NCBI GenBank assembly: GCA_025454755.1
Contig: JALONV010000001.1
Location: 11,950 to 75,949, forward strand
Length of the DNA: 64,000 nt
From: Bacteroidales bacterium
GTDB taxonomy: Bacteria; Bacteroidota; Bacteroidia; Bacteroidales; VadinHA17
Direction: 5' to 3'
Part shown: one piece after another, positions 9,873-44,859 of the stretch
How positions within the stretch are numbered: the first letter of the stretch is position 1
Layout of the letters: every line of letters begins with the position of its first letter
Notes under the pieces: model-generated
Database searches by the model: none
Told to the model about the DNA's origin: nothing
What the model saw: only the letters and a program-made list of their open reading frames with translations
Made by a program: the position numbers and the translations under genes

Positions 9873-11084
9873 ATGAGTTTTAAGCTTCTCTCATTAAGCA
9901 CAATGTACACCGGATCTTTAAATCATTTCTACCGTAACAGGTCCGGATTGGAGTCTCTGACTTATGATGAGCATCTGGCATTAATTCTAAGCGAATCGAC
10001 GGAATTTGCCGGATCCTATAACAAATATTTCAGACTGAAAGGAATAGAGGCTGACTGCGTCATTGCAAACGATAAGATCCTTCAGGCAAAGTGGTGCATG
10101 GAGAATGGAATAAAGACCAGGAGTGATGCAGAAATACTTTTAGAACAGGTCAAATACTATAAACCTGAAGTATTGTGGATTGAGAATCTAAGTCTTGTAA
10201 AGGGGTCATGGCTTTCTGAGGCAATGGCTCAGGCTAAAAGTATCAGGCTTGTAATAGGATATCATTGTTCTCCGATATACTCAACGATAAGCGATAGCAT
10301 CGCAGGAATGGATCTTATTATCACCTGTACTCCCGGATTAAAATCACTTTTTGAATCATCCGGTAAGAATGCATTTCTGGTTTATCATGGATTTGATACC
10401 GGCATTTTAGCATCATTGAAACCGGCCGATATTAAGGAAAAAGCAGATCTTGTGTTCTCGGGATCACTCACCACCGGTGATAATTTTCATCAGGACAGGA
10501 TCAGGTTAATTGAGGAAATTCTTAAAAGTGGGATTGACCTGAAATTATATGCAAATCTTGAAAGCATGTCCAGAATCAGGGCCAAGCAGTCTCTGTACCT
10601 TGTTAATTCATTCTTTAATCGAGTTGGCTTGTCAGGATTTGCAGATAAGATAAGAATTCTTGAACATGGCAGGACAAAGATTGAAAGTTATTCCGGCAGA
10701 CTTCTGAGCAAAACATTGCCACCTCTCTTTGGCATAGATATGTACGAGCTGTTACAAAAATCAAAAATTGTACTTAATTATCATATTGGGATTGCAGGCA
10801 ATTATGCAGGCAACATGCGAATGTTCGAAGTTACCGGGATGGGAAGCTGCCTTCTTACAGACAATAAGAATAATATAAATGACCTGTTTTCACCTGGAAA
10901 GGAAGTCGTTGTTTATGATAATTATGAAGATTGTATTGCCAAAATTAAGTGGCTTCTGGAGAATGAGGTTGAAAGACAAGAAATTGCCAGGGCAGGAAGG
11001 GAGAAAACTCTTAAATATCACACTGTTGAAAACAGATGCGGTTCAATAATTGAAATTATTCAAAACCAGCTGAACAAAGTCTGA
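9873..11084 (+). CDS. Glycosyltransferase, CgeB-like (Glyco_trans_1_2-type C-terminal domain)
   Basis: The C-terminal 'NMRMFEVTGMGSCLLTD...LENEVERQEIARAGREKTLKYHT' resembles CgeB/DUF3880-type glycosyltransferases. Confidence 0.5.
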   Translation: MSFKLLSLSTMYTGSLNHFYRNRSGLESLTYDEHLALILSESTEFAGSYNKYFRLKGIEADCVIANDKILQAKWCMENGIKTRSDAEILLEQVKYYKPEVLWIENLSLVKGSWLSEAMAQAKSIRLVIGYHCSPIYSTISDSIAGMDLIITCTPGLKSLFESSGKNAFLVYHGFDTGILASLKPADIKEKADLVFSGSLTTGDNFHQDRIRLIEEILKSGIDLKLYANLESMSRIRAKQSLYLVNSFFNRVGLSGFADKIRILEHGRTKIESYSGRLLSKTLPPLFGIDMYELLQKSKIVLNYHIGIAGNYAGNMRMFEVTGMGSCLLTDNKNNINDLFSPGKEVVVYDNYEDCIAKIKWLLENEVERQEIARAGREKTLKYHTVENRCGSIIEIIQNQLNKV

Positions 11085-29920: not shown

Positions 29921-30301
29921 ATGAATTCTGAACTTCTGAAAGACAAGAAAATACTGATCGTCGAGGATGATTTGTCGAGCCGGTTATACCTCAACAAGAT
30001 ACTAGAGAGGACGGGAGCTATACTGTTGAATGCCGGTGACGGGATAGAAGCTATTGAAATGGTAACAGATGTCCCGGGAATAAATGTGATACTGATGGAT
30101 ATTCAGCTGCCGGTGATGGATGGATATACTTCTGCAAAAAAGATCAGGGAACTGGGCCTCGATTTAAAGATTATAGCACAGACAGCCTACGGACTTTCCG
30201 GGGATATGGAAAACATTCTTACATCAGGTTTTGACGATTATATTGTTAAACCTATCTATTCCGGGCAGCTTATTGAAATGCTCGAATCATGCCTTAGATA
30301 A
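29921..30301 (+). CDS. Stand-alone response-regulator receiver domain (CheY-like)
   Basis: 'ILIVEDD', 'ILMDIQLPVMDG' (phospho-acceptor Asp) and 'IAQTA...K' motifs. 126 aa with no output domain. Confidence 0.85.
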   Translation: MNSELLKDKKILIVEDDLSSRLYLNKILERTGAILLNAGDGIEAIEMVTDVPGINVILMDIQLPVMDGYTSAKKIRELGLDLKIIAQTAYGLSGDMENILTSGFDDYIVKPIYSGQLIEMLESCLR

Positions 30302-36025: not shown

Positions 36026-36052
36026 AAATGGCCGTCTTGGTGACGGCCATTT
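36026..36052. terminator. Bidirectional intrinsic-terminator-like hairpin
   Basis: 'AAATGGCCGTC' (36026-36036) pairs perfectly with 'GACGGCCATTT' (36042-36052) across a 5-nt loop. A/T runs flank it. It lies between convergent stops at 36024 (+) and 36097 (-). Confidence 0.65.
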
Positions 36053-36096: not shown

Positions 36097-36933
36097 TCAG
36101 ATTGCGATCATGGAATTGACAAATTTGTTTATGTTGATATCCGAGCCTTCCGCTGTTTCCTTTGCGGGAACTGAAAAGTAGATGCCGGTGCCGGTGAGCC
36201 CGTTGCATTCAATCCAGACAGCTCCGCCCAGAATTGAAATAATTTTCTTGGCCAGGGTAATGTTAATCGCTGAAACTGTATCATTGTATTTGGCAAGCGA
36301 TCCATTCAGATCTTCAGTATGAAGAAATTCTTTGCATTTGAAATAACCCTGGCCGGAGTCCAAAACATAGAAGGTTACTTTTTCGTCCCTGAATTCATAA
36401 CCTATCTTTATATACCCTGAATTTGTATTTTGCAGCGCATTCTGAAACAGGATGCGAATTACCCTGAATACCCTGTCAGAATCAATAATAACATCAGTTG
36501 GATCGGGGCAGCTTTCTGTCACGAGAACAACATCCTGCTGACCTTCTCTTTTGATCATATCCCTGAATTCAGCGAGAAGTTCATCCAGAACATTGGTGAG
36601 TTTGCATATTCTCAGATCAGTTGTTAGTTTGCCCGATTCAATGATTGCAGAATCAAGAAAATTGTCCAGTAATCCTATCAGCTGTTCACACGAAGCAAGT
36701 ATCTGATTGCTGAATTCCTCTCTTTCGGAATCATTGTTTGAGTTCCGGTTCATGAGGTATGAAAACGCCACGATTGCATTCATGTGGGTTCTCACTTCGT
36801 GCGACATCCCGGTCAGGATAGTTGGACAATTTATCATACTTAGATTTGTTGAAACATCGACCTTACGAGTACCGTCCTTATTATCAGCATTATCTGATCC
36901 CAAACCCATCGTATGTAATGTAAGGTTTCTCAT
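36097..36933 (-). CDS. Histidine kinase core (HisKA + HATPase_c) without a recognisable sensor or TM domain
   Basis: H-box 'SHEVRTHMNAI', N-box 'LFQNALQNT', G1 'VLDSGQG', G2 'GLTGTG'. Only about 40 residues precede the H-box. Confidence 0.85.
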   Translation of the reverse strand: MRNLTLHTMGLGSDNADNKDGTRKVDVSTNLSMINCPTILTGMSHEVRTHMNAIVAFSYLMNRNSNNDSEREEFSNQILASCEQLIGLLDNFLDSAIIESGKLTTDLRICKLTNVLDELLAEFRDMIKREGQQDVVLVTESCPDPTDVIIDSDRVFRVIRILFQNALQNTNSGYIKIGYEFRDEKVTFYVLDSGQGYFKCKEFLHTEDLNGSLAKYNDTVSAINITLAKKIISILGGAVWIECNGLTGTGIYFSVPAKETAEGSDININKFVNSMIAI

Positions 36934-36952
36934 GTTGTGGAAAACGATTTAA

Positions 36953-37699
36953 TTACCTTATTCTTTTCAAAACTTTTCTTGCATCTTTCCTGTATATGCT
37001 TTCCGAATTAATTATCATTTTCAACTGCTCAATAGCACTCTCTTGTTCATCTGTCTGTATAAAACATAAGGCAAGATACCATTGTGCATCTTCAATGTAC
37101 AGGTTGCTGTTATTATCCACGATAGTTGTAAAGGATTGTTTAGCTACCGGGTAGTCTTTTTGTTCAAACTTTGATACGCCATACAACATGGTTGATTCCA
37201 TATCTGCAGGATTGTTCTTCAGTACCTTACTGAAATATGTGGCTGCAGTGCTGTAATCGCGGATGTTATAATAGTCCAGTCCTGTTTTAAAATCATCGTT
37301 GGCTATACTCTCTAAAGATCTTGAAGGAGAAATTCCTTCAAAATGGGTGCTGAACTTCTCGAGAATCTCATTGCCCGACATATTTCTCCCGTTATACAGA
37401 AGAAAGCTGCCAAGAAGTATAAAGACTGAGATAACTGCAGCATATTTTATCGCAGAATGCTTCCCGGGATTCTTTGCAGTTACAGCTTCTGCTCTCTGCC
37501 TTTCTATCTCACGAAGCTTGCTTCTCAGAAGAAGCGATGGATGATTCGAAAGAACCTTGTCTGTTCTGAGCCTCAGCGAAACTTCATCACGAAGTTTCTC
37601 GTTTCCTTCAAGTTCCTTTCGGAACCATTGTTTTTCAGCGTCATTCATCTCACCGGCATTATACCTTTCGATGAAATAGGAAAAATCAATTGTTTTCAT
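36953..37699 (-). CDS. Single-pass membrane protein with a C-terminal (predicted periplasmic) TPR domain; anti-sigma-factor-like architecture
   Basis: A charged N-terminal domain of about 90 aa, the TM helix 'AIKYAAVISVFILLGSFLLY', then TPR-like repeats ('YYNIRDYSTAATYFSKVLKNNP', 'FEQKDYPVAKQSFTTIV', 'AQWYLALCFIQTDEQESAIEQLKMI'). The functional label is inference from architecture. Confidence 0.55.
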   Translation of the reverse strand: MKTIDFSYFIERYNAGEMNDAEKQWFRKELEGNEKLRDEVSLRLRTDKVLSNHPSLLLRSKLREIERQRAEAVTAKNPGKHSAIKYAAVISVFILLGSFLLYNGRNMSGNEILEKFSTHFEGISPSRSLESIANDDFKTGLDYYNIRDYSTAATYFSKVLKNNPADMESTMLYGVSKFEQKDYPVAKQSFTTIVDNNSNLYIEDAQWYLALCFIQTDEQESAIEQLKMIINSESIYRKDARKVLKRIR

Positions 37700-37852
37700 A
37701 GAATTATCTTATTTGTTTTTTAACTCATTATTATCAAATCAAAAATCTATATTCTTATATGTCATTGCAAATCAATAACATGCAATCCATAGAACACACA
37801 TTATTTCATATATTCATTCATACCGGGCCATTTAACCCGCATCACCTGTTGT

Positions 37853-37873
37853 ATCATCCGGATCCCGGATGAT
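37853..37873 (-). terminator. Perfect 9-bp stem / 3-nt loop hairpin downstream of the GG-leader peptide gene (attenuator/terminator candidate)
   Basis: 'ATCATCCGG-ATC-CCGGATGAT'. It lies 52 nt after the peptide stop on the minus strand. No clear U-tract follows, so its function is uncertain. Confidence 0.35.
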
Positions 37874-37924
37874 TGTTTATTCCTGGTTATCCTGTCCTCA
37901 TGTCCAGGAATATCATATTCTTGC

Positions 37925-38062
37925 TCAGATCTTTACCGGGGGAATAGGAGGTTTAACAATCGGTTCATCCATATTGCCTCCGCGTACTTTAATCATTTCT
38001 TCCATTGACAGTGCAAACGCAGCAAAAAGTTCAGTCGTGTTTTTGAAATTCAGGGTTTTCAT
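37925..38062 (-). CDS. 45-aa double-glycine (GG) leader peptide precursor: MKTLNFKNTTELFAAFALSMEEMIKVRGG / NMDEPIVKPPIPPVKI
   Basis: Translated by hand from the minus strand (ATG 38062-38060, TGA 37927-37925). The ORF is below the track's length cut-off. Residues -12..-1, 'LSMEEMIKVRGG', fit the L-S-x-x-E-(L/M)-x-x-(I/V)-x-G-G leader consensus for C39-peptidase ABC exporters. Such an exporter is encoded at 41908..44094. Confidence 0.75.
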   Translation of the reverse strand: MKTLNFKNTTELFAAFALSMEEMIKVRGGNMDEPIVKPPIPPVKI

Positions 38063-38220
38063 TTTTTAAAGTTTTTTAATTATAAATACTAAATTCAGGG
38101 TATTTCTTTCAATCGTTTTTCAATAATACATGTAATAACTACCCGATTTGTGACACGAAAAAATCAATTATTTTTAAAATATTTTTTTAATACTTGAATA
38201 TCAATAATATACAGAGGCGT

Positions 38221-38267
38221 TATTTTTGAAACAGAAACGTTAAATTTGATATTTCCGGATATTTTTG
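38221..38267 (+). promoter_or_regulatory. Three TAnnTTTG (-7-box-like) motifs upstream of the TPR-CHAT gene
   Basis: 'TATTTTTG' at 38221-38228, 'TAAATTTG' at 38241-38248 and 'TATTTTTG' at 38260-38267. The Bacteroidetes primary-sigma -7 consensus is TAnnTTTG. The region is AT-rich, so chance matches are plausible. Confidence 0.3.
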
Positions 38268-38299
38268 AGATCTTTCAAGGGGAAAAACAGCAGTTTTTG

Positions 38300-41293
38300 A
38301 TGCTTAAAATGATTTTTATATATGGAATTTCATTCTGGGCTGCCCTGTCCGGAAATGATTCCGATCAGTTCCGGCGGCTGGCGGGCAGGATATCTGACCT
38401 TAATAATGCCGGTAATACAAATGCACTATTAATGATATCTGACAGCCTGCATCGTGCTTTAAACTTGCATCATTCTGACACTGCATCGCTGGCTGAGATC
38501 TATTATTATTCAGGAGTATGTAATCTGCTTGCTCAAAAGCAGGAAAATGCACTTGTTGACTTAAATAACTGTATTTATGCAAAGAGACAAGTTGGCATTA
38601 TGGATGAGAATTATGCCAAAGCTCTTTTTAATGCTGGTTTGTCATGCTATCAGCAGGGAGACTTTATTCAGTCGATCTCGTTTATGAAAGATTACGAGAA
38701 TCTGGCAATATCAAGATATGGTGAATACAGCGGAAACCTCGCTGAGGCCTATTCAGTATTGGCCGGGGCTTCAATAGAGTATATTGACTATGAGGGATTT
38801 GTTGATTATGCATTTAAGGCTCTCAATATAATAGGAAGGAATAAGGATGCCCTTGATGGCAATCAGCTTAGCAATCTTTATAGTACTATAGGTGTCGGCT
38901 ATATCAGGATGGCAGATTTTGCAAAGGCAAAGCTTTATCTTGAAAAGTCCGAATCGTTGATTAAGGAATTCAATATCCCTCATGATGCAAACTATATAAA
39001 CCTTATAAACAGCCTTGCATATACCTATGGAGTGCTCGGTCTTCACGATGAGGAGAAAGCATACTTCAAGAAAGGTATAGATCTCGCTGTTAATAATACT
39101 TCCAGTCTGGCTTTCAATCTAATTCATTCATATGCAATAGATATTGGTAAGGCAGGTAATGTTGACAAAGGAGAAGCACTTCTGTCGGAAGTGGTTAATA
39201 AAGCACAAAACGTATATGGAACTGATTCAAGGTTTTATATGGAGGTGCTTAATAATTATGCTAAATATCTGGTTTTATTCAGATATAAGACCGGGAATGC
39301 ACTGGAAATTTATAAAGCACTCCTTGTATATGTTTCAGAGCATCAGAACGATCTCAGCCTGAGAATGGAGGTTTTATTGGGTTTTGCAAGAGCACTTCAT
39401 GAAACTGGAAATAGTGAGAATGCCCTTAGAATCATACATGACCTGCTCTTTCAATCTACATCGGTTGAGCCGGCTGATCTATTTTCAAATCCTGCACCCG
39501 ATATTGTTCCTGCTGACAGAAGCTCGCTGAGGATTATCCAGTTTAAGCATGAAATCCTTAAGAGCTTATATCAAAAAACGCAGAACAGGGATATTTTAAT
39601 TGCTTCGGCCGAAACATCTGAGCTGATAGTGGCACTGATCGGGGAAATCCGGTTAAACATCTCTGAAGAAGAAAGCAGGCTGATTCTTGGCGACCGCTAC
39701 AGGGATTCATATTTGCTGGCAATACATGATTTTGAACAATGCTACAGAATAACTGGCGAACGCAGATTCCTTGAAAAGGCTTTTGAATTTGCTGAGAGAA
39801 GCAAAGTGGCAGGTTTGCTGGCGGCAACGCGGCAGATGAAAGCCGTGGAATTCCACATCCCTCAGAATCTGGCAGAACGCGAGAAACTGTTTCAGAATGA
39901 GATTGGATTCTATAACTCCAGGATATCTGCGGAGAATGAAAAAGAAAAGCCTGATCAGACTTTGCTTGCTCAATGGACAGAGAACCTTCTTTTAAAAGTT
40001 GCTGCCCGTGATTCTCTTGTACTGACATTTGAAAGAGATTTTCCCGATTATTTCACACTCAAGTATAATACAAAGGTGCCGCTGATGAAGGAAGTATCTT
40101 CAATCACCGGAAGAAGTCATACATATATTAACTATGTAGTTGCAGATTCTGTTTTGTATGTTTTTCTGATAAACAGGAAATATCAGGAATTGATTACAAT
40201 CAAGACCGATTCATCATTCATTAAAAACCTTGCCGATTTCAGGAGTCTGCTCTCTGATCCGTCACAGTCAGAAGACGCCAGAAAGAAATTTGAGAGTTTT
40301 CAGAGTATTGGTTATGACCTCTTCAAAATTCTCATTGAGCCTGTAAAACAATTTCTCATAAGCGATAACTTGCTTATATCCCCCGATAATATCCTCTCAT
40401 ATCTTCCATTTGAAACATTTCTTACTTCAAAATATGCCGGTAATGATATTTTATACCGTAAGCTGAAATACCTGATGAATGATTATAATATATCCTATGC
40501 ATATTCAGCAACATTTATGAGGGAGACAGTAAACAGGGATATACCAGAAAGAAACAGGCTGGTTGCTTTTGCGCCTTCATATCCGCTCTATTTGAATCTC
40601 GACTCCCTTTTAACCGAGCGGCAGGCAGGATATACCATTAAAGATATTCCATTCGCCCGGCAGGAGGCTGAGTATGTTGCCGGTACTACCCACGGCTCAC
40701 TTTATCTGAATTATGAGGCAAACGAATCTGAATACAAATCGGAAGCATCCAAATATAACCTGATCCACCTGGCGATGCATACTGTTGTGAACGATCAGAA
40801 TCCTATGAATTCGGCAATGGTCTTTGCACAGGTAAAGGATTCTGTTAATGATGGTCTGCTATATACTTATGAGGTCTATGGAATACCTCTAAAGGCAAAA
40901 ATGGTAGTTTTGAGTTCCTGCAACACCGGGAGCGGAACACTTTCTTCCGGAGAAGGTATTCTCAGCCTTGCCAGAGGATTTCTTTATTCCGGCAGCGAAT
41001 CTGTGGTAATGTCACTCTGGAAGATAGAAGACAGATCAGGTACGGACATAGTTAAGAAGTTCTACGACAATCTTAGAAAAGGAATGTCGAAGAGCAAGGC
41101 ACTGAGAAAAGCAAGATATGGTTATCTTAAAAAGGCGAGTCAGCTGAAGTCGCACCCGTATTTCTGGTCAACGCTTGTGATCTTTGGCGACAATGCGCCG
41201 GTTTTCTTTCCCTGGAAAATGATTGCTGGTTCCGGACTGGTGATAATTCTCGCTGCGATTTTACTTTTCCTTTATCTCTGGAAACGCAGATAA
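38300..41293 (+). CDS. TPR-repeat / CHAT (caspase-like protease) domain protein with an N-terminal hydrophobic segment and a C-terminal TM anchor
   Basis: The CHAT dyad context is 'LIHLAMHT' (His codon 40778-40780) and 'VVLSSCNTGSG' (Cys codon 40919-40921), followed by 'ARGFLYSGSESVVMSLW'. About 800 aa of TPR-like helical repeats lie upstream. The C-terminus is 'GLVIILAAILLFLYLWKRR'. The track ORF begins at a TTG at 38246; the first ATG is 38300 ('MLKMIFIYGISFWAALSG'). Confidence 0.85.
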   Translation: MLKMIFIYGISFWAALSGNDSDQFRRLAGRISDLNNAGNTNALLMISDSLHRALNLHHSDTASLAEIYYYSGVCNLLAQKQENALVDLNNCIYAKRQVGIMDENYAKALFNAGLSCYQQGDFIQSISFMKDYENLAISRYGEYSGNLAEAYSVLAGASIEYIDYEGFVDYAFKALNIIGRNKDALDGNQLSNLYSTIGVGYIRMADFAKAKLYLEKSESLIKEFNIPHDANYINLINSLAYTYGVLGLHDEEKAYFKKGIDLAVNNTSSLAFNLIHSYAIDIGKAGNVDKGEALLSEVVNKAQNVYGTDSRFYMEVLNNYAKYLVLFRYKTGNALEIYKALLVYVSEHQNDLSLRMEVLLGFARALHETGNSENALRIIHDLLFQSTSVEPADLFSNPAPDIVPADRSSLRIIQFKHEILKSLYQKTQNRDILIASAETSELIVALIGEIRLNISEEESRLILGDRYRDSYLLAIHDFEQCYRITGERRFLEKAFEFAERSKVAGLLAATRQMKAVEFHIPQNLAEREKLFQNEIGFYNSRISAENEKEKPDQTLLAQWTENLLLKVAARDSLVLTFERDFPDYFTLKYNTKVPLMKEVSSITGRSHTYINYVVADSVLYVFLINRKYQELITIKTDSSFIKNLADFRSLLSDPSQSEDARKKFESFQSIGYDLFKILIEPVKQFLISDNLLISPDNILSYLPFETFLTSKYAGNDILYRKLKYLMNDYNISYAYSATFMRETVNRDIPERNRLVAFAPSYPLYLNLDSLLTERQAGYTIKDIPFARQEAEYVAGTTHGSLYLNYEANESEYKSEASKYNLIHLAMHTVVNDQNPMNSAMVFAQVKDSVNDGLLYTYEVYGIPLKAKMVVLSSCNTGSGTLSSGEGILSLARGFLYSGSESVVMSLWKIEDRSGTDIVKKFYDNLRKGMSKSKALRKARYGYLKKASQLKSHPYFWSTLVIFGDNAPVFFPWKMIAGSGLVIILAAILLFLYLWKRR

Positions 41294-41838
41294 TCCTGAT
41301 ATTCAGGATCTTCTTTAATCTTCTCCATCAGGGCTTCCTTGCTGAGATATTTCTTTCGCCTGGCATAATTCTCATTTTTCATTTTCATTTTTTTTGCGAT
41401 TACCTCATAAGAATTTCCTTCTGAAAAAAGTGTCAGTATTGTCTGATACTCCGGAGTAAGTTTTTCATATGCTTTGCTTACAATCCTCTCAAACAATGAT
41501 TCATTTGACTCGTCATTGCTTGTATCATCCGGAATATCTTCACGAATTTCATCTGTTTCCTTTCTCGTCCGGAGATTATTATTCCAGATATTCCTGGCAA
41601 TGCCGAAAAAATAGCCTTTAAGGTCTGTGGTCAAGACCAGGGTATTGTCACAGATCTGATTGTACAGGACAATTATTGAGTCCTGGAATACATCAGAAAC
41701 ATCATCCGTAGAACCGCTGTTTTTGATTACATGGCTTTTTACTGGCTGATAATAATTATCATATAGCCAGTTAAGGGTTTTATCATCCTGATTTTTAATA
41801 CCCTCGATAATGTTTCTATCTGATAATTTTTTAAACAA
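41272..41838 (-). CDS. Sigma-70 family RNA polymerase sigma factor (ECF-like size, regions 2 and 4)
   Basis: 188 aa. The region-2-like stretch is 'DVSDVFQDSIIVLY...YFFGIARNIWNN'. The region-4 HTH is 'LTPEYQTILTLFSEGNSYEVIAKKMKM'. TTG start. The 3' end overlaps the convergent CHAT gene by 22 nt. Confidence 0.8.
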   Translation of the reverse strand: MFKKLSDRNIIEGIKNQDDKTLNWLYDNYYQPVKSHVIKNSGSTDDVSDVFQDSIIVLYNQICDNTLVLTTDLKGYFFGIARNIWNNNLRTRKETDEIREDIPDDTSNDESNESLFERIVSKAYEKLTPEYQTILTLFSEGNSYEVIAKKMKMKNENYARRKKYLSKEALMEKIKEDPEYQDYLRFQR

Positions 41839-41907
41839 CCCCGTGTGGATAGCGAATCAAACCGCAAATATAAATATCTTTACTCATTAAACTTCCGGCG
41901 GAACCAA

Positions 41908-44094
41908 ATGACATTTCCTTTTGTCAAACAACCTGATGCCATGGATTGCGGTCCTTCATGCCTTAAAATGGTGGCAGCTTATTATAAGAAGAACTTTTCT
42001 CTCGACACAATCCGGAAGAAATGCTATATAACAAAAGAGGGTGTCTCTTTTCTGGGACTTTCCGAAGCTGCCGATTCTCTGGGTTTCCGTACAATTGGTG
42101 TAAAGATCACTTTCGAGATGCTGGCCGAAAGCGTACCACTTCCATTTATTGTTCACTGGCGGCAGAAGCATTTTATTGTTGTATACAAAGTCAAAGATGA
42201 TAAAGTCTGGGCTGCAGATCCCGCATTGGGACTTGTTAAGTTATCCCGTGAGGAATTTCTGAAAAACTGGGCATCTACAATTTTTGAAGAAAAACCTGCA
42301 GGACTTGTGCTTATAATTGAACCTACTCCGGCTCTGCTTGAGCAGGAGGAGGAACAGGAAAAATCACGCGGGTTCAGGTTTCTTTTCAAATACCTGAAAC
42401 TATACGACAAATATGTTATCCAGCTTATTCTTGGCCTTTTTCTGGGAAGCTTAATCCAACTTGTCATTCCATTTCTCACACAAGCAGTTATTGACATTGG
42501 GATAAATTCGAACAACCAGAAACTCATATACCTTATACTCTTTGCACAACTTGCCCTGGTGATCGGCAGGATGTCTGTAGAGTTCATCAGAGGCTGGCTC
42601 CTGCTTTATATCGGGACCAGAGTTAATGTGTCAGTTATCTCAGGATTTCTTCAAAAGCTGATGGCGCTTCCAATTGCATTTTTTGATACCAGGCTGACCG
42701 GAGATATTCTCCAGCGTATTGATGATAATAACAGGATTGAGGAATTTCTTACTTCGGCAAGCCTCAATATGCTGTTCTCAATCTTTAACCTTGTTATTTT
42801 TGGTATAGTCCTGGCTATTTACAGCGCAAAAATATTCCTTTTATTCATGGTCGGAGCATGTCTTTATGTCCTGTGGGTTTCCCTATTCATGAAGAAAAGA
42901 GCAAGACTTGATCAGCAGCGTTTCAGGCAGATGTCTGCTGCCGGAACGAAGATGATTACAATAATTAACGGCATGCAGGAGATCAAGCTTACTCAGAGCG
43001 AAACGAGTATGCGATGGGACTGGGAAAGAGTACAGGCTTCACTTTTCGGGCTTAAAACCAAAGCTCTTGGACTTATCCAGTATCAATCTGCAGGGGCGAC
43101 ATTCATTAATGAGGTTACAAATATTGGAATTACGGTGATCGCCGCAACTTCTGTCCTTAAAGGAGAAATGACTCTGGGCATGATGCTTGCTGTTCAGTTC
43201 ATTATCGGTCAGCTTAATGTTCCACTGAGCCAGATCATAGGATTTTTCCGTGTTTCACAGGACGCAAGGATGAGCCTGGACAGATTGTCGGAAGTGCACG
43301 AAATGCAGGATGAAGAGCCTGAACCTGAAATGAAAGTCACGAAACTGCCCGAACGGAAGAGGATCTTTATTAATAATGTTTCATACCAATATGAAGGTCC
43401 GCGCTCGCCGTTTGTCCTGAAAGATGTTGACCTTGTAATAGAAGAGAACCAAACCACTGCAATCGTAGGGTCAAGTGGAAGCGGTAAAACCACTCTTCTC
43501 AAGCTTCTTCTGGGTTTTTATCAGCCTGTAAGCGGAGAAATACTCGTTGGCAATACCCGGCTCTCAAACCTGAGTTTAAAATTATGGAGAGAAAAGACCG
43601 GAGCTGTAATGCAGGATGGTTTCCTTTTTCCGGAAACAATAGCATACAACATTGCCCCTGGCATTTCTCCAATAAATGAAGAGAGACTGATGATGGCTGT
43701 TGAGATTGCAAATATTAAAGGCTTAATTGAATCGCTGCCACTGGGGTACAATACCAGGATAGGAATAGACGGACATGGATTAAGTGAGGGACAAAAGCAG
43801 AGGCTGCTTATTGCCAGGGCAGTCTACAAGAATCCGGAGATTCTAATATTCGATGAAGCAACAAATTCGCTTGATGCCGGAACTGAAAAGGTAATTGTTG
43901 AAAACCTGTCGGGGTTTTTTACAGGAAAAACAGTCATCATTGTTGCACACAGGCTTAGCACGGTGAAGGATGCAGGAAAAATTCTGGTCATGGATGGAGG
44001 AAGGATTGTGGAAACCGGAACTCATTCTTCACTTATTGACAGCCATGGTGCTTATTATAATCTTGTGAAGAACCAGCTTGAACTTGGATCATAA
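41908..44094 (+). CDS. Peptidase C39 domain-containing ABC transporter (double-glycine peptide-cleaving exporter)
   Basis: C39 catalytic context: 'QPDAMDCGPSCLKMV' (Cys), 'WRQKHFIVVYKV' (His), 'AADPALG' (Asp). Six-TM ABC membrane domain. Walker A 'GSSGSGKTT', signature 'LSEGQKQR', Walker B 'ILIFDEAT'. The ATG at 41908 is preferred over the GTG at 41845. Confidence 0.95.
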   Translation: MTFPFVKQPDAMDCGPSCLKMVAAYYKKNFSLDTIRKKCYITKEGVSFLGLSEAADSLGFRTIGVKITFEMLAESVPLPFIVHWRQKHFIVVYKVKDDKVWAADPALGLVKLSREEFLKNWASTIFEEKPAGLVLIIEPTPALLEQEEEQEKSRGFRFLFKYLKLYDKYVIQLILGLFLGSLIQLVIPFLTQAVIDIGINSNNQKLIYLILFAQLALVIGRMSVEFIRGWLLLYIGTRVNVSVISGFLQKLMALPIAFFDTRLTGDILQRIDDNNRIEEFLTSASLNMLFSIFNLVIFGIVLAIYSAKIFLLFMVGACLYVLWVSLFMKKRARLDQQRFRQMSAAGTKMITIINGMQEIKLTQSETSMRWDWERVQASLFGLKTKALGLIQYQSAGATFINEVTNIGITVIAATSVLKGEMTLGMMLAVQFIIGQLNVPLSQIIGFFRVSQDARMSLDRLSEVHEMQDEEPEPEMKVTKLPERKRIFINNVSYQYEGPRSPFVLKDVDLVIEENQTTAIVGSSGSGKTTLLKLLLGFYQPVSGEILVGNTRLSNLSLKLWREKTGAVMQDGFLFPETIAYNIAPGISPINEERLMMAVEIANIKGLIESLPLGYNTRIGIDGHGLSEGQKQRLLIARAVYKNPEILIFDEATNSLDAGTEKVIVENLSGFFTGKTVIIVAHRLSTVKDAGKILVMDGGRIVETGTHSSLIDSHGAYYNLVKNQLELGS

Positions 44095-44103
44095 TCTATA
44101 AGG

Positions 44104-44673
44104 ATGAAGGATAATAAATTTGAAATATTGTACTCTGATCATGTAAACGATATTATCTCAAAACCTCCAAGAAAAATTGTAAGGTGGGGAACCGTCGTTA
44201 TTTTTTCAGTTTTCACACTTTTTGTATTGCTTGCCTGGATTATCAAATATCCTGATGTAATATCCGCCCCTGTGGTAATTTCGAAATCAGGTCTTCCAGC
44301 CGGGTCCGTCTCTCAAATAACAGGGGATAAGGTACCAGAAAATTCCTGCGGGTATATTGGAAGAATAAGCCTGGGAATTGAAAGATCAGGCAAGGTTGCT
44401 GTTGATCAAAAAGTAAATATCAAGGTAAGCGCATACCCGTTTTTCGAATATGGAATCTTAGAAGGGACCATCAGGTCCAAAACATTTGCTGAGTCAAGCA
44501 ATACATATGATCTGGAAGTAACACTTAATCAGGGTCTTAAAACAACTTATGGAATAACTATCGAATTCACACAGAATATGCAGGGGAGTGCAGATATACT
44601 TACAAATGATAAAAGGTTTTTGCAAAGGATCATTAATCCGCTCAGACATCAGATCACTAAAAACATCAAATGA
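44104..44673 (+). CDS. HlyD-family secretion adaptor, unusually short (189 aa; central coiled-coil/lipoyl region apparently absent)
   Basis: The N-terminus 'PPRKIVRWGTVVIFSVFTLFVLLAWIIKYPDVISAPVVI' and C-terminus 'GKVAVDQKVNIKVSAYPFFEYGILEGTI...MQGSADILTNDKRFLQRIINPL' match the two ends of Bacteroidota bacteriocin-exporter HlyD proteins. Those are normally about twice this length. Confidence 0.7.
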   Translation: MKDNKFEILYSDHVNDIISKPPRKIVRWGTVVIFSVFTLFVLLAWIIKYPDVISAPVVISKSGLPAGSVSQITGDKVPENSCGYIGRISLGIERSGKVAVDQKVNIKVSAYPFFEYGILEGTIRSKTFAESSNTYDLEVTLNQGLKTTYGITIEFTQNMQGSADILTNDKRFLQRIINPLRHQITKNIK

Positions 44674-44859
44674 TCATTTATTGCTGTCTGCATAAGGCTC
44701 ATAATCATCATCTTCCGATTTTGAAGAAAATTTCGAACGGGAATCGGAACTTTGATTCCGGCTGGTACCCTCAGCATTTTTCTTCATATACTTCCTGTAA
44801 AGACTGTACGCTACAGCCACAAGACAGGCTACAAGAATGATAATATCTTTTGTTTCCAT
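44674..44859 (-). CDS. Small single-TM protein with a charged, Ser-rich tail (hypothetical)
   Basis: 61-aa ORF with the TM helix 'IIILVACLVAVAYSLY' followed by a low-complexity acidic tail. No family recognised. Coding status is uncertain. Confidence 0.4.
   Translation of the reverse strand: METKDIIILVACLVAVAYSLYRKYMKKNAEGTSRNQSSDSRSKFSSKSEDDDYEPYADSNK

Follow-up and report, generated by a model that had tools for sequence, protein, structure and literature searches.

A seven-gene locus of an uncultured Bacteroidales bacterium resembles a peptide-responsive gene switch of a kind not yet described. The locus, which lies in a window of 64,000 nucleotides (the whole stretch of DNA analysed), encodes a soluble histidine kinase, a TPR membrane protein (TPR248), a double-glycine (GG) precursor peptide, a TPR-CHAT protease (CHAT), a sigma factor, a Peptidase-C39 ABC exporter (PCAT) and an HlyD-family adaptor. 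An ORF check of the window found all seven genes in the positions and orientations given by the first-pass annotation, which had proposed that they form one composite module (Table 1). The existence and strand of every ORF were confirmed, but the start codon of the exporter was later than called, and most likely that of CHAT as well. The proposal as a whole was partly supported: its components and the linkage of sigma factor, TPR248 and CHAT (the triad) held, whereas its readings of the kinase, the short HlyD protein and the RRNPP likeness did not.

Table 1. Genes and sequence elements of the locus (window positions)
Feature	Position	Strand	Description
Terminator-like hairpin	36026..36052	-	11-bp stem and T run; closes the unit peptide > TPR248 > kinase
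Soluble histidine kinase	36097..36933	-	HisKA and HATPase_c; H-box SHEVRTH present
TPR248	36953..37699	-	248 aa; probable single-pass anti-sigma factor
R127 codon of TPR248	37319-37321	-	part of SRS in the linker
Two hairpins	37853..37912	-	directly 3' of the peptide stop codon; stem co-varies among relatives
Double-glycine precursor peptide	37925..38062	-	45 aa; annotated as a gene in two further assemblies
Bipartite promoter-like element	38128..38154	-	GTCACAA-N-ACATGT (GTCAC-N16-ACATG), ~66 nt upstream of the peptide ATG
TPR-CHAT caspase-like protease	38300..41293	+	997 aa; Sec-type signal peptide, TPR, middle region, CHAT
ECF-type sigma factor	41272..41838	-	188 aa; convergent with CHAT, 22-bp overlap of the CHAT 3' end
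Sigma/exporter divergent promoter region	41839..41907	.	two conserved blocks in alignment, ~140 bp in relatives
Peptidase-C39 ABC exporter (PCAT)	41908..44094	+	728 aa; ORF 41845-44094
HlyD-family adaptor	44104..44673	+	189 aa; C-terminal third only (TIGR01843 positions 319-417)
61-aa protein	44674..44859	-	one N-terminal TM; convergent with HlyD; detectable in 46/63 loci

Conservation of the locus and the dispensable kinase

The members of the lineage were uncultured MAGs throughout. Wherever the contig reached far enough, the core genes were present in every related locus, namely TPR248 (73/73), the peptide (75/75), CHAT (76/76), sigma factor (79/79), exporter (72/72) and HlyD (63/63). The housekeeping flanks QueE (65/65), OmpA-like (66/66), DUF349 (60/60) and PyrG (55/58) were equally conserved, so synteny within the lineage is no proof of function. 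As a sign of joint function, conserved gene order therefore failed inside the lineage, and it was in other Bacteroidota that the triad was found linked. The arrangement is beyond chance, since the six core genes were always present and parts of the combination recur in unrelated contexts.

The histidine kinase contained no sensor, no TM and no hydrophobic segment. It is probably co-transcribed with TPR248, as judged from a gap of 19 bp between the two genes. The kinase had been placed at the output of the module; it is instead a dispensable accessory neighbour with no linked response regulator, and 6 of 71 related loci as well as every Cytophagales version lack it. A stand-alone receiver gene was located 6 kb upstream, and its presence did not co-vary with that of the kinase.

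Sigma factor, TPR248 and the TPR-CHAT protease

The sigma ORF matched the sigma70-ECF model TIGR02937 with 52.5 bits (cut-off 42.9), and scored 16 bits (E=0.007) with the III-E sigma model, for which the cut-off is 100. In one contig (L082) the sigma factor was more divergent (46%), yet CHAT was still convergent and the exporter divergent.

TPR248 was composed of an N-terminal helical domain (residues 1–75), a TM (residues 83–104) and a periplasmic three-repeat TPR domain (residues 135–247), and the domain search matched its C-terminal half to TPR_6/TPR_16. The first 50 residues were almost invariant among orthologues. The N-terminal domain had no Pfam or PDB sequence match, and AlphaFold2 modelled it confidently as a helical bundle (pLDDT 84.9). 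When this model was compared with the PDB by Foldseek, anti-sigma domains, namely those of RslA, RsiW and DdvA-Nt, made up 10 of the 13 matches, with weak E-values of 0.56–7.7. RslA and RsiW were aligned locally with rmsd values of 1.3–2.1 Å over 43–50 columns, and DdvA-Nt with 4.0 Å. The anti-sigma-like control suggested earlier for this locus thus gained a structural counterpart, and TPR248 is probably the anti-sigma factor. Its TPR part resembled YbgF and peptide-binding three-repeat TPR modules. The juxtamembrane linker was disordered (pLDDT below 50) and contained S126-R127-S128, which was invariant in 26 inspected orthologues and retained in at least 90% of all 48; 9 of 11 sequences drawn from different orders retained the arginine. 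This SRS is a candidate cleavage site.

The CHAT ORF (38246-41293, plus strand) contained TPR_12 and CHAT domains (E=5e-56), and its start is most likely ATG 38300, which gives 997 residues as in P0001. The dyad of the CHAT domain, H827/C874, was intact and invariant in orthologues, and no sequence similarity to solved CHAT structures was detectable. The C-terminus held a TM (residues 975–993) followed by a WKRR tail. Nearly all orthologues shared the Sec-type signal peptide, the C-terminal TM and the basic tail, and these features predict a periplasmic CHAT with an inner-membrane anchor. The TPR domains of both TPR248 and CHAT are therefore predicted to lie outside the cytoplasm, as the first-pass annotation had held.

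Distant homologues of the three proteins were found together in all eight Cytophagales plasmid loci compared (five from Chondrinema, one from Emticicia and two from Aureibacter). The gene orders and flanks of these loci all differed, and in one of them the sigma, anti-sigma and CHAT genes followed each other in this order as an operon whose stop and start codons overlapped. The sigma gene was absent from both cyanobacterial CHAT loci (2/2). The triad thus recurred as a linked set in other Bacteroidota, independent of its flanks, and very probably forms one functional unit. Neither a GG-peptide nor a PCAT was found near 7 of the 8 Cytophagales triads, so the triad is not coupled to a peptide as a rule. 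The remaining locus, Aureibacter plasmid pAT7, provided one independent example of the larger combination, with the triad placed back to back with a GG-peptide, a PCAT, HlyD and TolC. Plasmid pAT7 is only 15 kb in size, so that the adjacency of its genes is partly forced.

GG-peptide, exporter and promoter

The peptide consisted of the leader MKTLNF...LSMEEMIKVRGG and, after cleavage behind the GG, a predicted mature 16-mer, NMDEPIVKPPIPPVKI. In the relatives the core ended in [ED]P..[KL]P..PP[VI][KR]I. The 78 distinct peptide sequences had a net charge of -3 to +1, no conserved Cys and specificity-like variable positions; in the lineage of the window the core was 12–21 residues long, neutral to acidic and without a modifying enzyme. 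The gene was tandemly amplified in one locus (L056). The peptide ORF proved to be real and conserved; its leader is of the canonical double-glycine type, and a C39 exporter is encoded nearby.

The exporter was composed of Peptidase_C39, ABC_membrane and ABC_tran domains, with its true start at ATG 41908. Its catalytic pair is likely C14 in DCGPSC and H88 in KHF. The HlyD protein was 429–431 residues long in 62 of 69 relatives and 189 in the window, where about 240 residues, with the coiled-coil hairpin region, had been lost through an in-frame deletion inside the gene. The deletion is real, as it recurs in the closest relative and in an assembly made independently, and the "mini-HlyD" is accordingly a derivative of a 429-residue protein rather than a design feature. 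The window locus encoded no TolC. An obvious immunity gene had been reported as lacking, but the conserved 61-residue membrane protein that adjoins the exporter may have an immunity or accessory role; its membership of the module is uncertain.

The element GTCAC-N16-ACATG was preceded by a T run and had fixed spacing in 76 of 76 sites. It occurred once in the 64-kb window (0.02 expected) and, in 1.6 Mb of related loci, only before peptide genes. The element is a candidate target of the ECF sigma factor. Sigma factor, CHAT and exporter appear, from their upstream boxes, to be expressed from housekeeping-type promoters. The Bacteroidetes promoter -7 consensus is TAnnTTTG, and boxes of this type were present upstream of all three. 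In the divergent region, the reverse complement of block GGCAAATATAGTATTTCC held TATATTTG, a housekeeping -7 box for the sigma gene, and block TATAAATATCTTTAC was a -7-like box for the exporter; upstream of CHAT the box was TAAATTTG. A housekeeping-driven sigma gene is atypical for ECF sigma factors, and counts against the main model. The hairpins between the peptide gene and TPR248 are candidates for an attenuator or a terminator.

The same element could instead be an operator bound by a transcription factor from another part of the genome, such as a response regulator partnering the neighbouring orphan kinase in the manner of the Gram-positive ComDE/BlpHR circuits, with a different regulon for the sigma factor. 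The element does not have the textbook ECF pattern AAC ... CGT, a near-housekeeping -7-like box, TAGTATTG, overlaps its 3' end in many loci, and the kinase belongs to the same transcription unit. However, the element was unchanged in the six loci without the kinase, where ACATGTA was kept and the -7-like box was not, and the receiver gene upstream was distributed independently of the kinase. Two short invariant blocks at a fixed 16-nt spacing are typical of -35/-10 recognition by a single sigma factor, and the domain search of the module proteins found no DNA-binding regulator. An operator is therefore judged unlikely, and the element is treated below as a candidate promoter.

Co-variation of the peptide with other parts was analysed by partial Mantel tests over 52 loci. 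The peptide core correlated with the TPR region of CHAT (r=0.27–0.34, p=0.0005), the CHAT middle region (r=0.21–0.29) and the periplasmic domain of TPR248 (r=0.20–0.26), with values of ~0 for the CHAT protease domain, sigma factor, exporter and TPR248 N-terminus. The leader correlated with the C39 domain (r=0.31–0.46) and showed no correlation with the TPR regions. These values are modest, and an unrelated envelope protein, the OmpA-like flank, reached r=0.10–0.20.

Peptide and exporter are somewhat more probably than not tied functionally to the triad. According to the opposite explanation, a GG-peptide/PCAT/HlyD cassette and a sigma/anti-sigma/CHAT switch are independent units, juxtaposed once in the lineage ancestor and kept together merely by inheritance in a rearrangement-poor region. 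The equally conserved housekeeping flanks, the absence of PCAT from most triads elsewhere and the lack of a regulatory motif common to the peptide promoter and the exporter, CHAT or sigma genes agree with such a history. The two units nevertheless interleave, in the order TPR248 - peptide - CHAT - sigma - exporter, with the peptide gene flanked by those for anti-sigma and CHAT and with a divergent promoter region common to sigma factor and exporter. Furthermore, the combination occurs a second time, independently, on pAT7, which belongs to a different class of Bacteroidota, the peptide promoter is non-housekeeping and the sole alternative sigma factor nearby is that of the module, and the co-variation is specific to the core and the TPR regions. 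Mere inheritance is thus quite improbable.

Comparison with known systems and proposed mechanism

The closest described system is DdvA/DdvS of Myxococcus xanthus, and by analogy the locus is in effect DdvA split into two polypeptides. DdvA combines an anti-sigma domain and a periplasmic TPR-CHAT in one transmembrane protein that acts on the ECF sigma factor DdvS; its TPR-CHAT is a proposed site-1 protease that cuts a flexible membrane-adjacent linker before RseP-type cleavage, and the fused architecture occurs only in Myxococcota and one Comamonas (PMC11506125). Both systems have an ECF sigma factor held by a single-pass anti-sigma with a small N-terminal helical domain, and DdvA-Nt was among the few fold matches of TPR248. 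In contrast to DdvA, the Bacteroidota locus has two proteins (ASD-TM-TPR of 248 and TPR-CHAT of 997 residues), a complete His/Cys dyad where the DdvA active site is described as incomplete, no CHCC zinc site, and linkage to genes for a GG-peptide and its export rather than to CBASS/CRISPR. No cas genes or CRISPR array were found among the module genes.

In the type III-E Craspase, Cas7-11 works with the TPR-CHAT protein Csx29, which cleaves Csx30, the holder of the sigma factor RpoE (PMC10028731). There too an activated TPR-CHAT protease is proposed to release an ECF-like sigma factor by proteolytic removal of its inhibitor, but that system is cytoplasmic and RNA-guided, whereas the protease here is predicted to be periplasmic. 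DegS-RseA-sigmaE (and AlgW-MucA-AlgU) also has a periplasmic site-1 protease, activated by capture of a C-terminal peptide motif, that cuts a single-pass anti-sigma and leads to release of an ECF sigma factor. It uses a serine protease, a PDZ sensor and a misfolded porin C-terminus as ligand, in place of a clan CD (CHAT) protease, candidate TPR sensors and a dedicated exported ribosomal peptide as candidate ligand.

The peptide side resembles ComC-ComAB-ComDE and BlpC-BlpAB-BlpHR of Firmicutes in its short unmodified GG-leader peptide of pheromone size, whose members differ at few positions, its C39-ABC transporter and HlyD-like accessory, and its dedicated inducible peptide promoter, a candidate here. 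Those systems sense the peptide with a polytopic histidine kinase that works with a LytTR response regulator; the only kinase of the present locus is soluble, sensor-less and dispensable, the candidate transducer is sigma / anti-sigma / protease, and there are two membranes. The RRNPP receptors (Rap, NprR, PlcR, PrgX, Rgg), to which the locus had been likened, also use TPR-type repeats to bind short linear peptides. That analogy failed on topology, as they are cytoplasmic, depend on Opp peptide re-import and are themselves the regulators or phosphatases, whereas both TPR domains here are predicted periplasmic and would act, if at all, through proteolysis.

A peptide-coupled switch of regulated proteolysis, built from sigma factor, TPR248 and CHAT, would operate as follows. 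The exporter and HlyD would remove the leader after the GG, as is established for these families, and export a proline-rich peptide of 12–21 residues ending in PP[VI][KR]I-COOH. CHAT and/or TPR248 may recognise this peptide through their periplasmic TPR surfaces, and CHAT so activated would cut the disordered linker of TPR248, with SRS as the candidate site. Intramembrane proteolysis of TPR248 would then free the sigma factor, which would transcribe the peptide gene from GTCAC-N16-ACATG, and read-through of the hairpins may extend transcription to TPR248 and the kinase. This full model falls a little short of an even chance, and the assignment of the peptide as inducing ligand and of CHAT as site-1 protease is more tentative. 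A peptide of ~1.7 kDa that has passed the outer membrane would need a return route to meet periplasmic sensors, and the adaptor of the window's own subclade is without the hairpin domain; both observations count against the model.

The peptide could also be an effector under sigma control rather than the ligand, with the triad sensing another envelope cue. Such a cue might come, for instance, from a competitor, from phage or damage, or from a neighbouring secreted protein, and the peptide would serve as an antimicrobial, an anti-phage agent or a surface-active compound. In 7 of 8 Cytophagales loci the triad has genes for unrelated secreted proteins or lipoproteins beside it, which suggests a generic sensor with variable cargo; the pAT7 peptide core (29–34 residues, helix-like) is closer to a class II bacteriocin; the special promoter is restricted to the peptide gene; DdvA/DdvS governs a defence island (PMC11506125); and a potential immunity protein adjoins the exporter. 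On the other hand, a neutral to acidic core of 12–21 residues fits an unmodified bacteriocin poorly and a pheromone-sized GG-peptide well, and its co-variation with two periplasmic TPR regions only is unexpected without physical contact. Defence families matched none of the module proteins, save generic ATPase-domain matches to the nucleotide-binding domain of the exporter. An effector role is therefore rather unlikely.

If the peptide-coupled switch is true, the locus would constitute a positive loop driven by the peptide, with resupply of the anti-sigma factor built in.

Gene content and conservation of the locus

The ORF map of the locus, which came from an uncultured Bacteroidales MAG, gave the same order and strands that the first-pass annotation had assigned to seven genes when it proposed a composite module at 36097-44673, and the domains were confirmed by Pfam and NCBIfam scans. 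The CHAT protein was then used for a scan with one genome per species, which returned 200 relatives, and the best 80 of the 200 loci (43-67% identity) were compared together with their 10-kb flanks.

Features of the locus, with their occurrence in lineage loci where the contig reaches
Feature	Position	Strand	Basis or remark	Present
Stand-alone receiver gene	29921-30301	+	6 kb upstream
Strong terminator	36026-36052
HisKA + HATPase_c soluble kinase	36097-36933	-	Pfam + NCBIfam	65/71
TPR248, 248 aa, one TM, C-terminal TPR domain	36953-37699	-	Pfam + NCBIfam	73/73
GG-peptide ORF, 45 aa, ending in LSMEEMIKVRGG and NMDEPIVKPPIPPVKI	37925-38062	-	ORF map	75/75
11-mer ACCCTGAATTT, coding copy	38046-38056	-
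11-mer ACCCTGAATTT, peptide 5' UTR copy	38091-38101	-
GTCAC-N16-ACATG element	38128-38154	-	~66 nt upstream of peptide ATG
TPR + CHAT protein, 997 aa	start 38300	+	domain scans; gene calls of other assemblies	76/76
CHAT/sigma gene overlap, 22 bp	41272-41293
ECF-type sigma factor	41272-41838	-	TIGR02937 above cut-off	79/79
Peptidase_C39-ABC exporter, 728 aa	start 41908	+	domain scans; gene calls of other assemblies	72/72
HlyD-type adaptor, 189 aa	44104-44673	+	last third of HlyD only matched	63/63
61-aa single-TM protein	44674-44859	-	convergent with HlyD

The peptide ORF was conserved, as the proposed module demanded, in all 75 related loci where it was observable. Synteny, which had been put forward as a test of the module, gave no evidence of function: the core was intact throughout the lineage, and the flanking genes QueE (65/65), OmpA-like (66/66), DUF349 (60/60) and PyrG (55/58) were likewise retained. 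Because the flanks were as conserved as the module, collinearity within the lineage alone is no argument for function. The matches of three protein homologue searches were saturated by orthologues from within the lineage. In one kinase-less subclade (L024-L026), PyrG no longer adjoined DUF349 and the core module was intact; this synteny break was among the few near the module.

The kinase had no TM and no sensor domain by Pfam and topology prediction, which agreed with its description as sensor-less, but its place as a required member of the module was lost: it was absent from six of 71 loci (L012, L014, L024-L026 and L070), where the OmpA-like gene abutted TPR248, and these losses mark it as dispensable. 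The module contained no response regulator. The stand-alone receiver gene was considered as a kinase partner and rejected, as it showed no co-occurrence with the kinase (39 loci with both, 18 with the kinase only, 3 with the receiver only and 1 with neither).

The triad of sigma factor, TPR248 and TPR-CHAT protease

The sigma factor had the composition of an ECF sigma factor, with sigma-2 and sigma-4 only in about 190 aa, and scored 52.5 bits against TIGR02937 (cut-off 42.9); its orthologues carried Sigma70_r2 and Sigma70_r4_2. Among the listed subfamily and equivalog sigma models, none attained its own cut-off with the window sigma factor. The sigma gene was convergent with the CHAT gene and overlapped it, with a median overlap of 9 bp in 79 related loci, and an overlap was also present on the divergent metagenome contig L082. 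This arrangement suggests possible transcriptional interference or coupling.

TPR248, the candidate anti-sigma factor, had 787 homologues, of which nearly all were about 248 aa among the 120 matches listed; the first 50 residues were almost invariant and the remainder diverged. A single TM (aa 83-104) was followed by the TPR domain (aa 135-247), as in the TM-sensor part of a class I single-pass anti-sigma factor. In the AlphaFold2 model, four N-terminal helices preceded the TM helix, and three TPR-like helix pairs followed it after a disordered linker with pLDDT below 50 at residues 124-131. As a whole, the model matched YbgF/CpoB and three-repeat peptide-binding TPR modules, among them Hop TPR2A in complex with MEEVD. 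When the N-terminal 80 residues were modelled alone (pLDDT 84.9), 10 of 13 Foldseek matches in the PDB were anti-sigma domains (RslA, RsiW and DdvA-Nt), with rmsd values of 1.3-2.1 Å over 43-50 columns for the local matches to RslA and RsiW and 4.0 Å for DdvA-Nt. The model is suggestive of an anti-sigma fold, short of proof because the E-values were weak (0.56-7.7), and neither the Pfam scan nor the PDB profile search gave any sequence match for this domain. The zinc ligands of ZAS domains (HxxxCxxC/CHCC) were absent: residues 1-80 contained no Cys in any of the 40 sequences listed of 48 aligned, nor in any of the 17 aligned in A4. In the linker, S126-R127-S128 was invariant in the 26 orthologues inspected, and at least 90% of the full set of 48 had it.

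Nearly all CHAT orthologues began with a Sec-type signal peptide, and the protein had a C-terminal TM and a basic tail; it should therefore be a periplasmic protein with an anchor in the inner membrane. The two TPR domains, which the first-pass annotation had placed outside the cytoplasm, were both periplasmic by sequence-based topology prediction. Residues H827 and C874 of the CHAT protein were invariant, and in the sequence comparison with solved CHAT structures only the TPR region was matched.

A translated search of a plasmid collection returned distant TPR-CHAT homologues (24-31% identity) from the order Cytophagales, in Chondrinema litorale (five plasmids), Emticicia oligotrophica (one plasmid) and Aureibacter tunicatorum (two plasmids). 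In all eight loci a sigma-70-family gene was found a few genes at most from the CHAT gene, and the gene immediately after sigma encoded a protein of 233-253 aa. These proteins were TPR248 homologues (best E=1.8e-10, near full length), which retained the N-terminal motif I-x-x-Y-x-x-G...E...F...L, the TM and the juxtamembrane Y..YE....SR[SG]; the juxtamembrane Arg was kept in 9 of 11 aligned TPR248-type sequences. The candidate anti-sigma gene was thus directly behind sigma in 8/8 Cytophagales loci and two genes from it in the window. The sigma factors were homologous to that of the window (best 33% identity, E=7e-30), and the CHAT proteins had a C-terminal TM in 8/8 and a hydrophobic, signal-peptide-like N-terminus in 7/8. 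Gene orders, orientations and flanks (SusC/D, IS66, ParA/rep and others) all differed among these triads, and one locus was an operon of sigma, a 252-aa protein and CHAT with overlapping stop and start codons. The recurrence of homologous triads in such different contexts makes it highly probable that the triad is a functional unit across Bacteroidota orders, whatever its neighbourhood. Chondrinema litorale carried five triads on five plasmids. A single metagenome scan with the nearest outgroup sigma as query returned only L082, a 1.4-kb contig with a more divergent sigma factor (46%), a convergent CHAT gene and a divergent C39 exporter gene. In cyanobacterial CHAT plasmid loci, the sigma gene was absent in 2/2.

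The GG-peptide, its exporter and its promoter-like element

The 82 peptide genes encoded 78 distinct sequences, in which the leader (LSMEEMIKVRGG in the window) was of the canonical double-glycine type; L(-12), M(-7) and GG were the same throughout, and E(-8) and V/I(-4) almost throughout. The mature part, or core, was predicted to have 12-21 residues, mostly 15-17 (NMDEPIVKPPIPPVKI in the window), in which an acidic/Gly linker led into a C-terminal motif of 13 residues, [ED]-P-[ITV]-[IVL]-[KL]-P-x-x-P-P-[VI]-[KRI]-[IL]-COOH. Its net charge was -3 to +1 and its Pro content 26%, with no conserved Cys. Class II (unmodified) bacteriocins, in contrast, are cationic or amphiphilic peptides of about 30-60 aa with a dedicated immunity gene. 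Judged from the general features of the two families, the size and composition of the core would match pheromone-type GG peptides better. In one related locus (L056, 8656-10001), the peptide gene (MKTLNLTIDLLNEFTLSNDEMIAVRGGDGDPIVMPTQPPIII) was repeated in tandem between TPR248 and CHAT, in five identical copies, and another (L080, 9023-10001) contained two diverged paralogues.

The exporter had the architecture of a PCAT, with Peptidase_C39 (E=8e-37), ABC_membrane and ABC_tran domains by Pfam, was aligned over its full length by TIGR01193 and TIGR03796, and carried the DCGPSC and KHF motifs with the likely catalytic Cys and His of C39. In the PCAT family, the leader is removed after GG and the core is exported, and a gene with a double-glycine leader was present nearby. 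The adaptor was 411-443 aa long in 69 related loci (429-431 aa in 62 of them), whereas the window HlyD aligned only to the first ~75 and the last ~115 residues of its relatives; about 240 residues were missing in frame, including the coiled-coil hairpin, which normally contacts the outer-membrane channel. An adaptor of 188/189 aa was also present in the nearest relative (85% identical CHAT, different sample) and in an independent assembly of the same organism, so that the deletion is real and common to a small subclade. The occurrence of the same length in these two assemblies ruled out an assembly artefact. The "mini-HlyD" is thus a derived in-frame deletion of a full-length protein and not a designed short adaptor. 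The hairpin-less ORF was nevertheless retained in the window. No TolC gene was found in the window module. The first-pass annotation had seen no obvious immunity gene; the conserved 61-aa protein adjoining HlyD, which has a single TM helix at its N-terminus and a tail rich in acidic residues and Ser, was the sole candidate. It was detectable in 46/63 related loci, had no family match, and is a possible immunity or accessory protein.

Upstream of each peptide gene lay an invariant element, TTTTTTnGTGTCACAAA-N-GACATGTA, whose GTCAC-N16-ACATG spacing was fixed in 76/76. This element occurred once in the 64-kb window against 0.02 expected, and in 1.6 Mb of related loci it was located before peptide genes only; the exceptions were a coding coincidence in the H-box of the kinase and a few isolated matches. 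A scan of five Cytophagales loci (L086-L090) did not find it. The housekeeping promoter of Bacteroidetes reads TTTG ... TAnnTTTG, and the element does not fit this consensus. The sigma and exporter genes each had a conserved housekeeping-type box upstream (TATATTTG and TATCTTTA, respectively), and another (TAAATTTG) lay upstream of CHAT in the window sequence; no promoter motif common to the module genes was found. The region upstream of sigma lacked GTCAC-N16-ACATG, unlike that of an autoregulated ECF gene. The peptide gene was followed by co-varying hairpins and then by TPR248, the kinase gene and the terminator, and no known RNA family was matched in the region. In the simplest reading, the sensor and export proteins are made constitutively, and an alternative sigma factor drives the peptide gene, with read-through into the anti-sigma gene; we infer that this is the adjacent ECF sigma factor. 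The element could otherwise be an operator for an unlinked regulator, a reading that is disfavoured because the element was unchanged in the loci where the kinase was lost and its spacing was fixed. An inverted-repeat reading was rejected, as the G of the putative GACA half-site varied and ACATGTA was invariant. The 11-mer ACCCTGAATTT occurred twice, and its coding copy encoded peptide residues 3-6 (KTLNF region); the UTR copy (CCCTGAAT) was conserved in most related loci. This repeat may be regulatory or a relic of tandem duplication.

Co-variation of the peptide with the other parts was examined by a mirror-tree test on 52 complete lineage loci, in which phylogeny was controlled by the housekeeping flanks, the other module parts, or both. 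The core co-varied with the CHAT TPR region (partial r 0.27-0.34, p 0.0005), the CHAT middle region (0.21-0.29, p 0.0005-0.001) and the periplasmic domain of TPR248 (0.20-0.26, p 0.0005-0.001). Its values were about 0 and not significant for the CHAT protease domain, sigma, the exporter and the TPR248 N-terminus. The leader co-varied with the C39 domain (0.31-0.46, p 0.0005) and showed no significant co-variation with the TPR regions. Because the effect was modest and the control, core against the OmpA-like flank, was not zero (0.10-0.20, p 0.01-0.11), the core/TPR signal is taken as no more than supportive of a tie between peptide and triad.

Outside the lineage, the PCAT was absent from the shown flanks of seven Cytophagales triads, and no GG-peptide was found in the five loci scanned for small ORFs. 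The PCAT-less triads (L086-L091 and L093) adjoined secreted proteins or lipoproteins without known function, some of them Cys-rich. These variable neighbours suggest exchangeable "cargo" or ligands. In the eighth locus, on the 15-kb plasmid pAT7 of Aureibacter tunicatorum (L092, 1197-10928), sigma, an anti-sigma-like ASD-TM-TPR protein and CHAT were followed convergently by a 49-aa GG-peptide (MKDLNHKEQVMIDGG-MIDGG-YIGRQ...), a C39-ABC exporter, HlyD (388 aa) and TolC. pAT7 is a second, independent co-occurrence of triad and peptide exporter, in another class. The co-localisation expected of the module across Bacteroidota was upheld for the triad (8/8 Cytophagales loci); a GG-peptide together with a PCAT was seen beside it in pAT7. 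An upstream "HTH domain" ORF of pAT7 (10605-10928) ended in a perfect GG leader and a 17-aa core (MPKEMSATDMYHINGG and STLRSFANAGHIFFNFS), and this tail may represent a fusion or a second peptide of pheromone size.

Two other accounts of the peptide bear on these results. A mere juxtaposition of export cassette and triad is disfavoured, given the interleaved gene order, the private promoter of the peptide gene, the co-occurrence in pAT7 and the core/TPR co-variation. The main rival to a peptide signal is that the triad responds to some other cue and has the peptide as its output, or effector, which would suit both the varying cargo beside the Cytophagales triads and the bacteriocin-like peptide of pAT7.

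Proposed circuit and relation to known systems

Sequence and comparison established the genes of the locus, the topologies predicted for their products, active sites that are intact, the conserved peptide with its private promoter-like element and the recurrent triad, and the peptide-signal model builds on these. From the known activity of its family, the exporter would trim the leader after GG and export the core. Periplasmic TPR surfaces may then bind the peptide, whose invariant C-terminus is reminiscent of the C-terminal ligands of TPR clamps and of the DegS PDZ domain. CHAT would cut TPR248 at the SRS next to the membrane, the release of sigma would be completed by an RseP-type protease, and the freed sigma factor would transcribe the peptide gene and resupply the anti-sigma factor. 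The complete autoinducer circuit, in which an exported ribosomal peptide acts through a periplasmic TPR on a CHAT protease that cuts a separate anti-sigma factor and frees an ECF sigma factor for the peptide gene, would be new and is offered tentatively, with the odds somewhat against it. It has three open problems: an exported peptide of ~1.7 kDa must reach the periplasmic sensors of other cells, the locus is without TolC, and the adaptor is truncated in the subclade of the window. Speculatively, the truncated adaptor might release the peptide into the producer's own periplasm.

The nearest known system is DdvA/DdvS of Myxococcus, in which a periplasmic TPR-CHAT is fused to the anti-sigma factor as a proposed site-1 protease; by its authors' account, no other anti-sigma factor with a TPR-CHAT domain has been characterised, and the fused architecture was found only in Myxococcota and one Comamonas (PMC11506125). 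As in DdvA, a predicted-periplasmic TPR-CHAT was paired with an ECF sigma factor in 79/79 lineage and 8/8 Cytophagales loci. However, DdvA carries the anti-sigma domain, TM and TPR-CHAT on one polypeptide, whereas the window has two separate genes, and its CHAT protein has a signal peptide, its own C-terminal TM and no anti-sigma domain. Type III-E CRISPR Craspase has a Cas7-11/gRAMP effector and a CRISPR array beside TPR-CHAT, Csx30/Csx31 and RpoE, whereas no cas gene was found among the module genes by Pfam and NCBIfam. PADLOC gave no match to CHAT, sigma or TPR248 and no defence system, apart from generic ATPase matches to the exporter. ComDE/BlpHR systems use a polytopic kinase sensor and a LytTR regulator, whereas the window kinase is soluble and has no response regulator in the module. 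The analogy first drawn with RRNPP receptors did not survive: those are cytoplasmic, are fused to a regulator or serve as one, and have their peptide re-imported, whereas both TPR domains here are predicted to be periplasmic and have no HTH domain. In the literature searched, no paper was found that describes the split triad in Bacteroidota, and none that brings a GG-peptide/PCAT, TPR-CHAT and an ECF sigma factor together. The parts are rated as being of known kinds (ECF regulated proteolysis and GG-peptide export) and their combination as new, and there is a substantial chance that the locus represents a signalling architecture of a new type.

ECF sigma factors form the "third pillar" of signalling in bacteria, and to our knowledge few of their site-1 proteases and triggering ligands are known; we are also aware of essentially no charted peptide-based cell-cell or self-signalling in Bacteroidota. 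The locus is compact and testable, with a predicted ligand (16-mer), an exporter, two candidate receptors, a caspase-like protease whose active site is intact, a candidate SRS site and a predicted output promoter. It extends DdvA-type anti-sigma control to a split form with a complete catalytic dyad in several orders of another phylum, and this suggests that bacterial caspase-like proteases are general triggers of sigma release outside CRISPR and defence. The triad and promoter could possibly serve as an orthogonal peptide-inducible switch for Bacteroidota. If the model is true, peptide signalling in this Gram-negative lineage would proceed through anti-sigma proteolysis and not through a two-component system or an RRNPP receptor, and Bacteroidota would have in the sigma/ASD-TM-TPR/TPR-CHAT triad a widespread device for signalling, the inputs of which can be exchanged.
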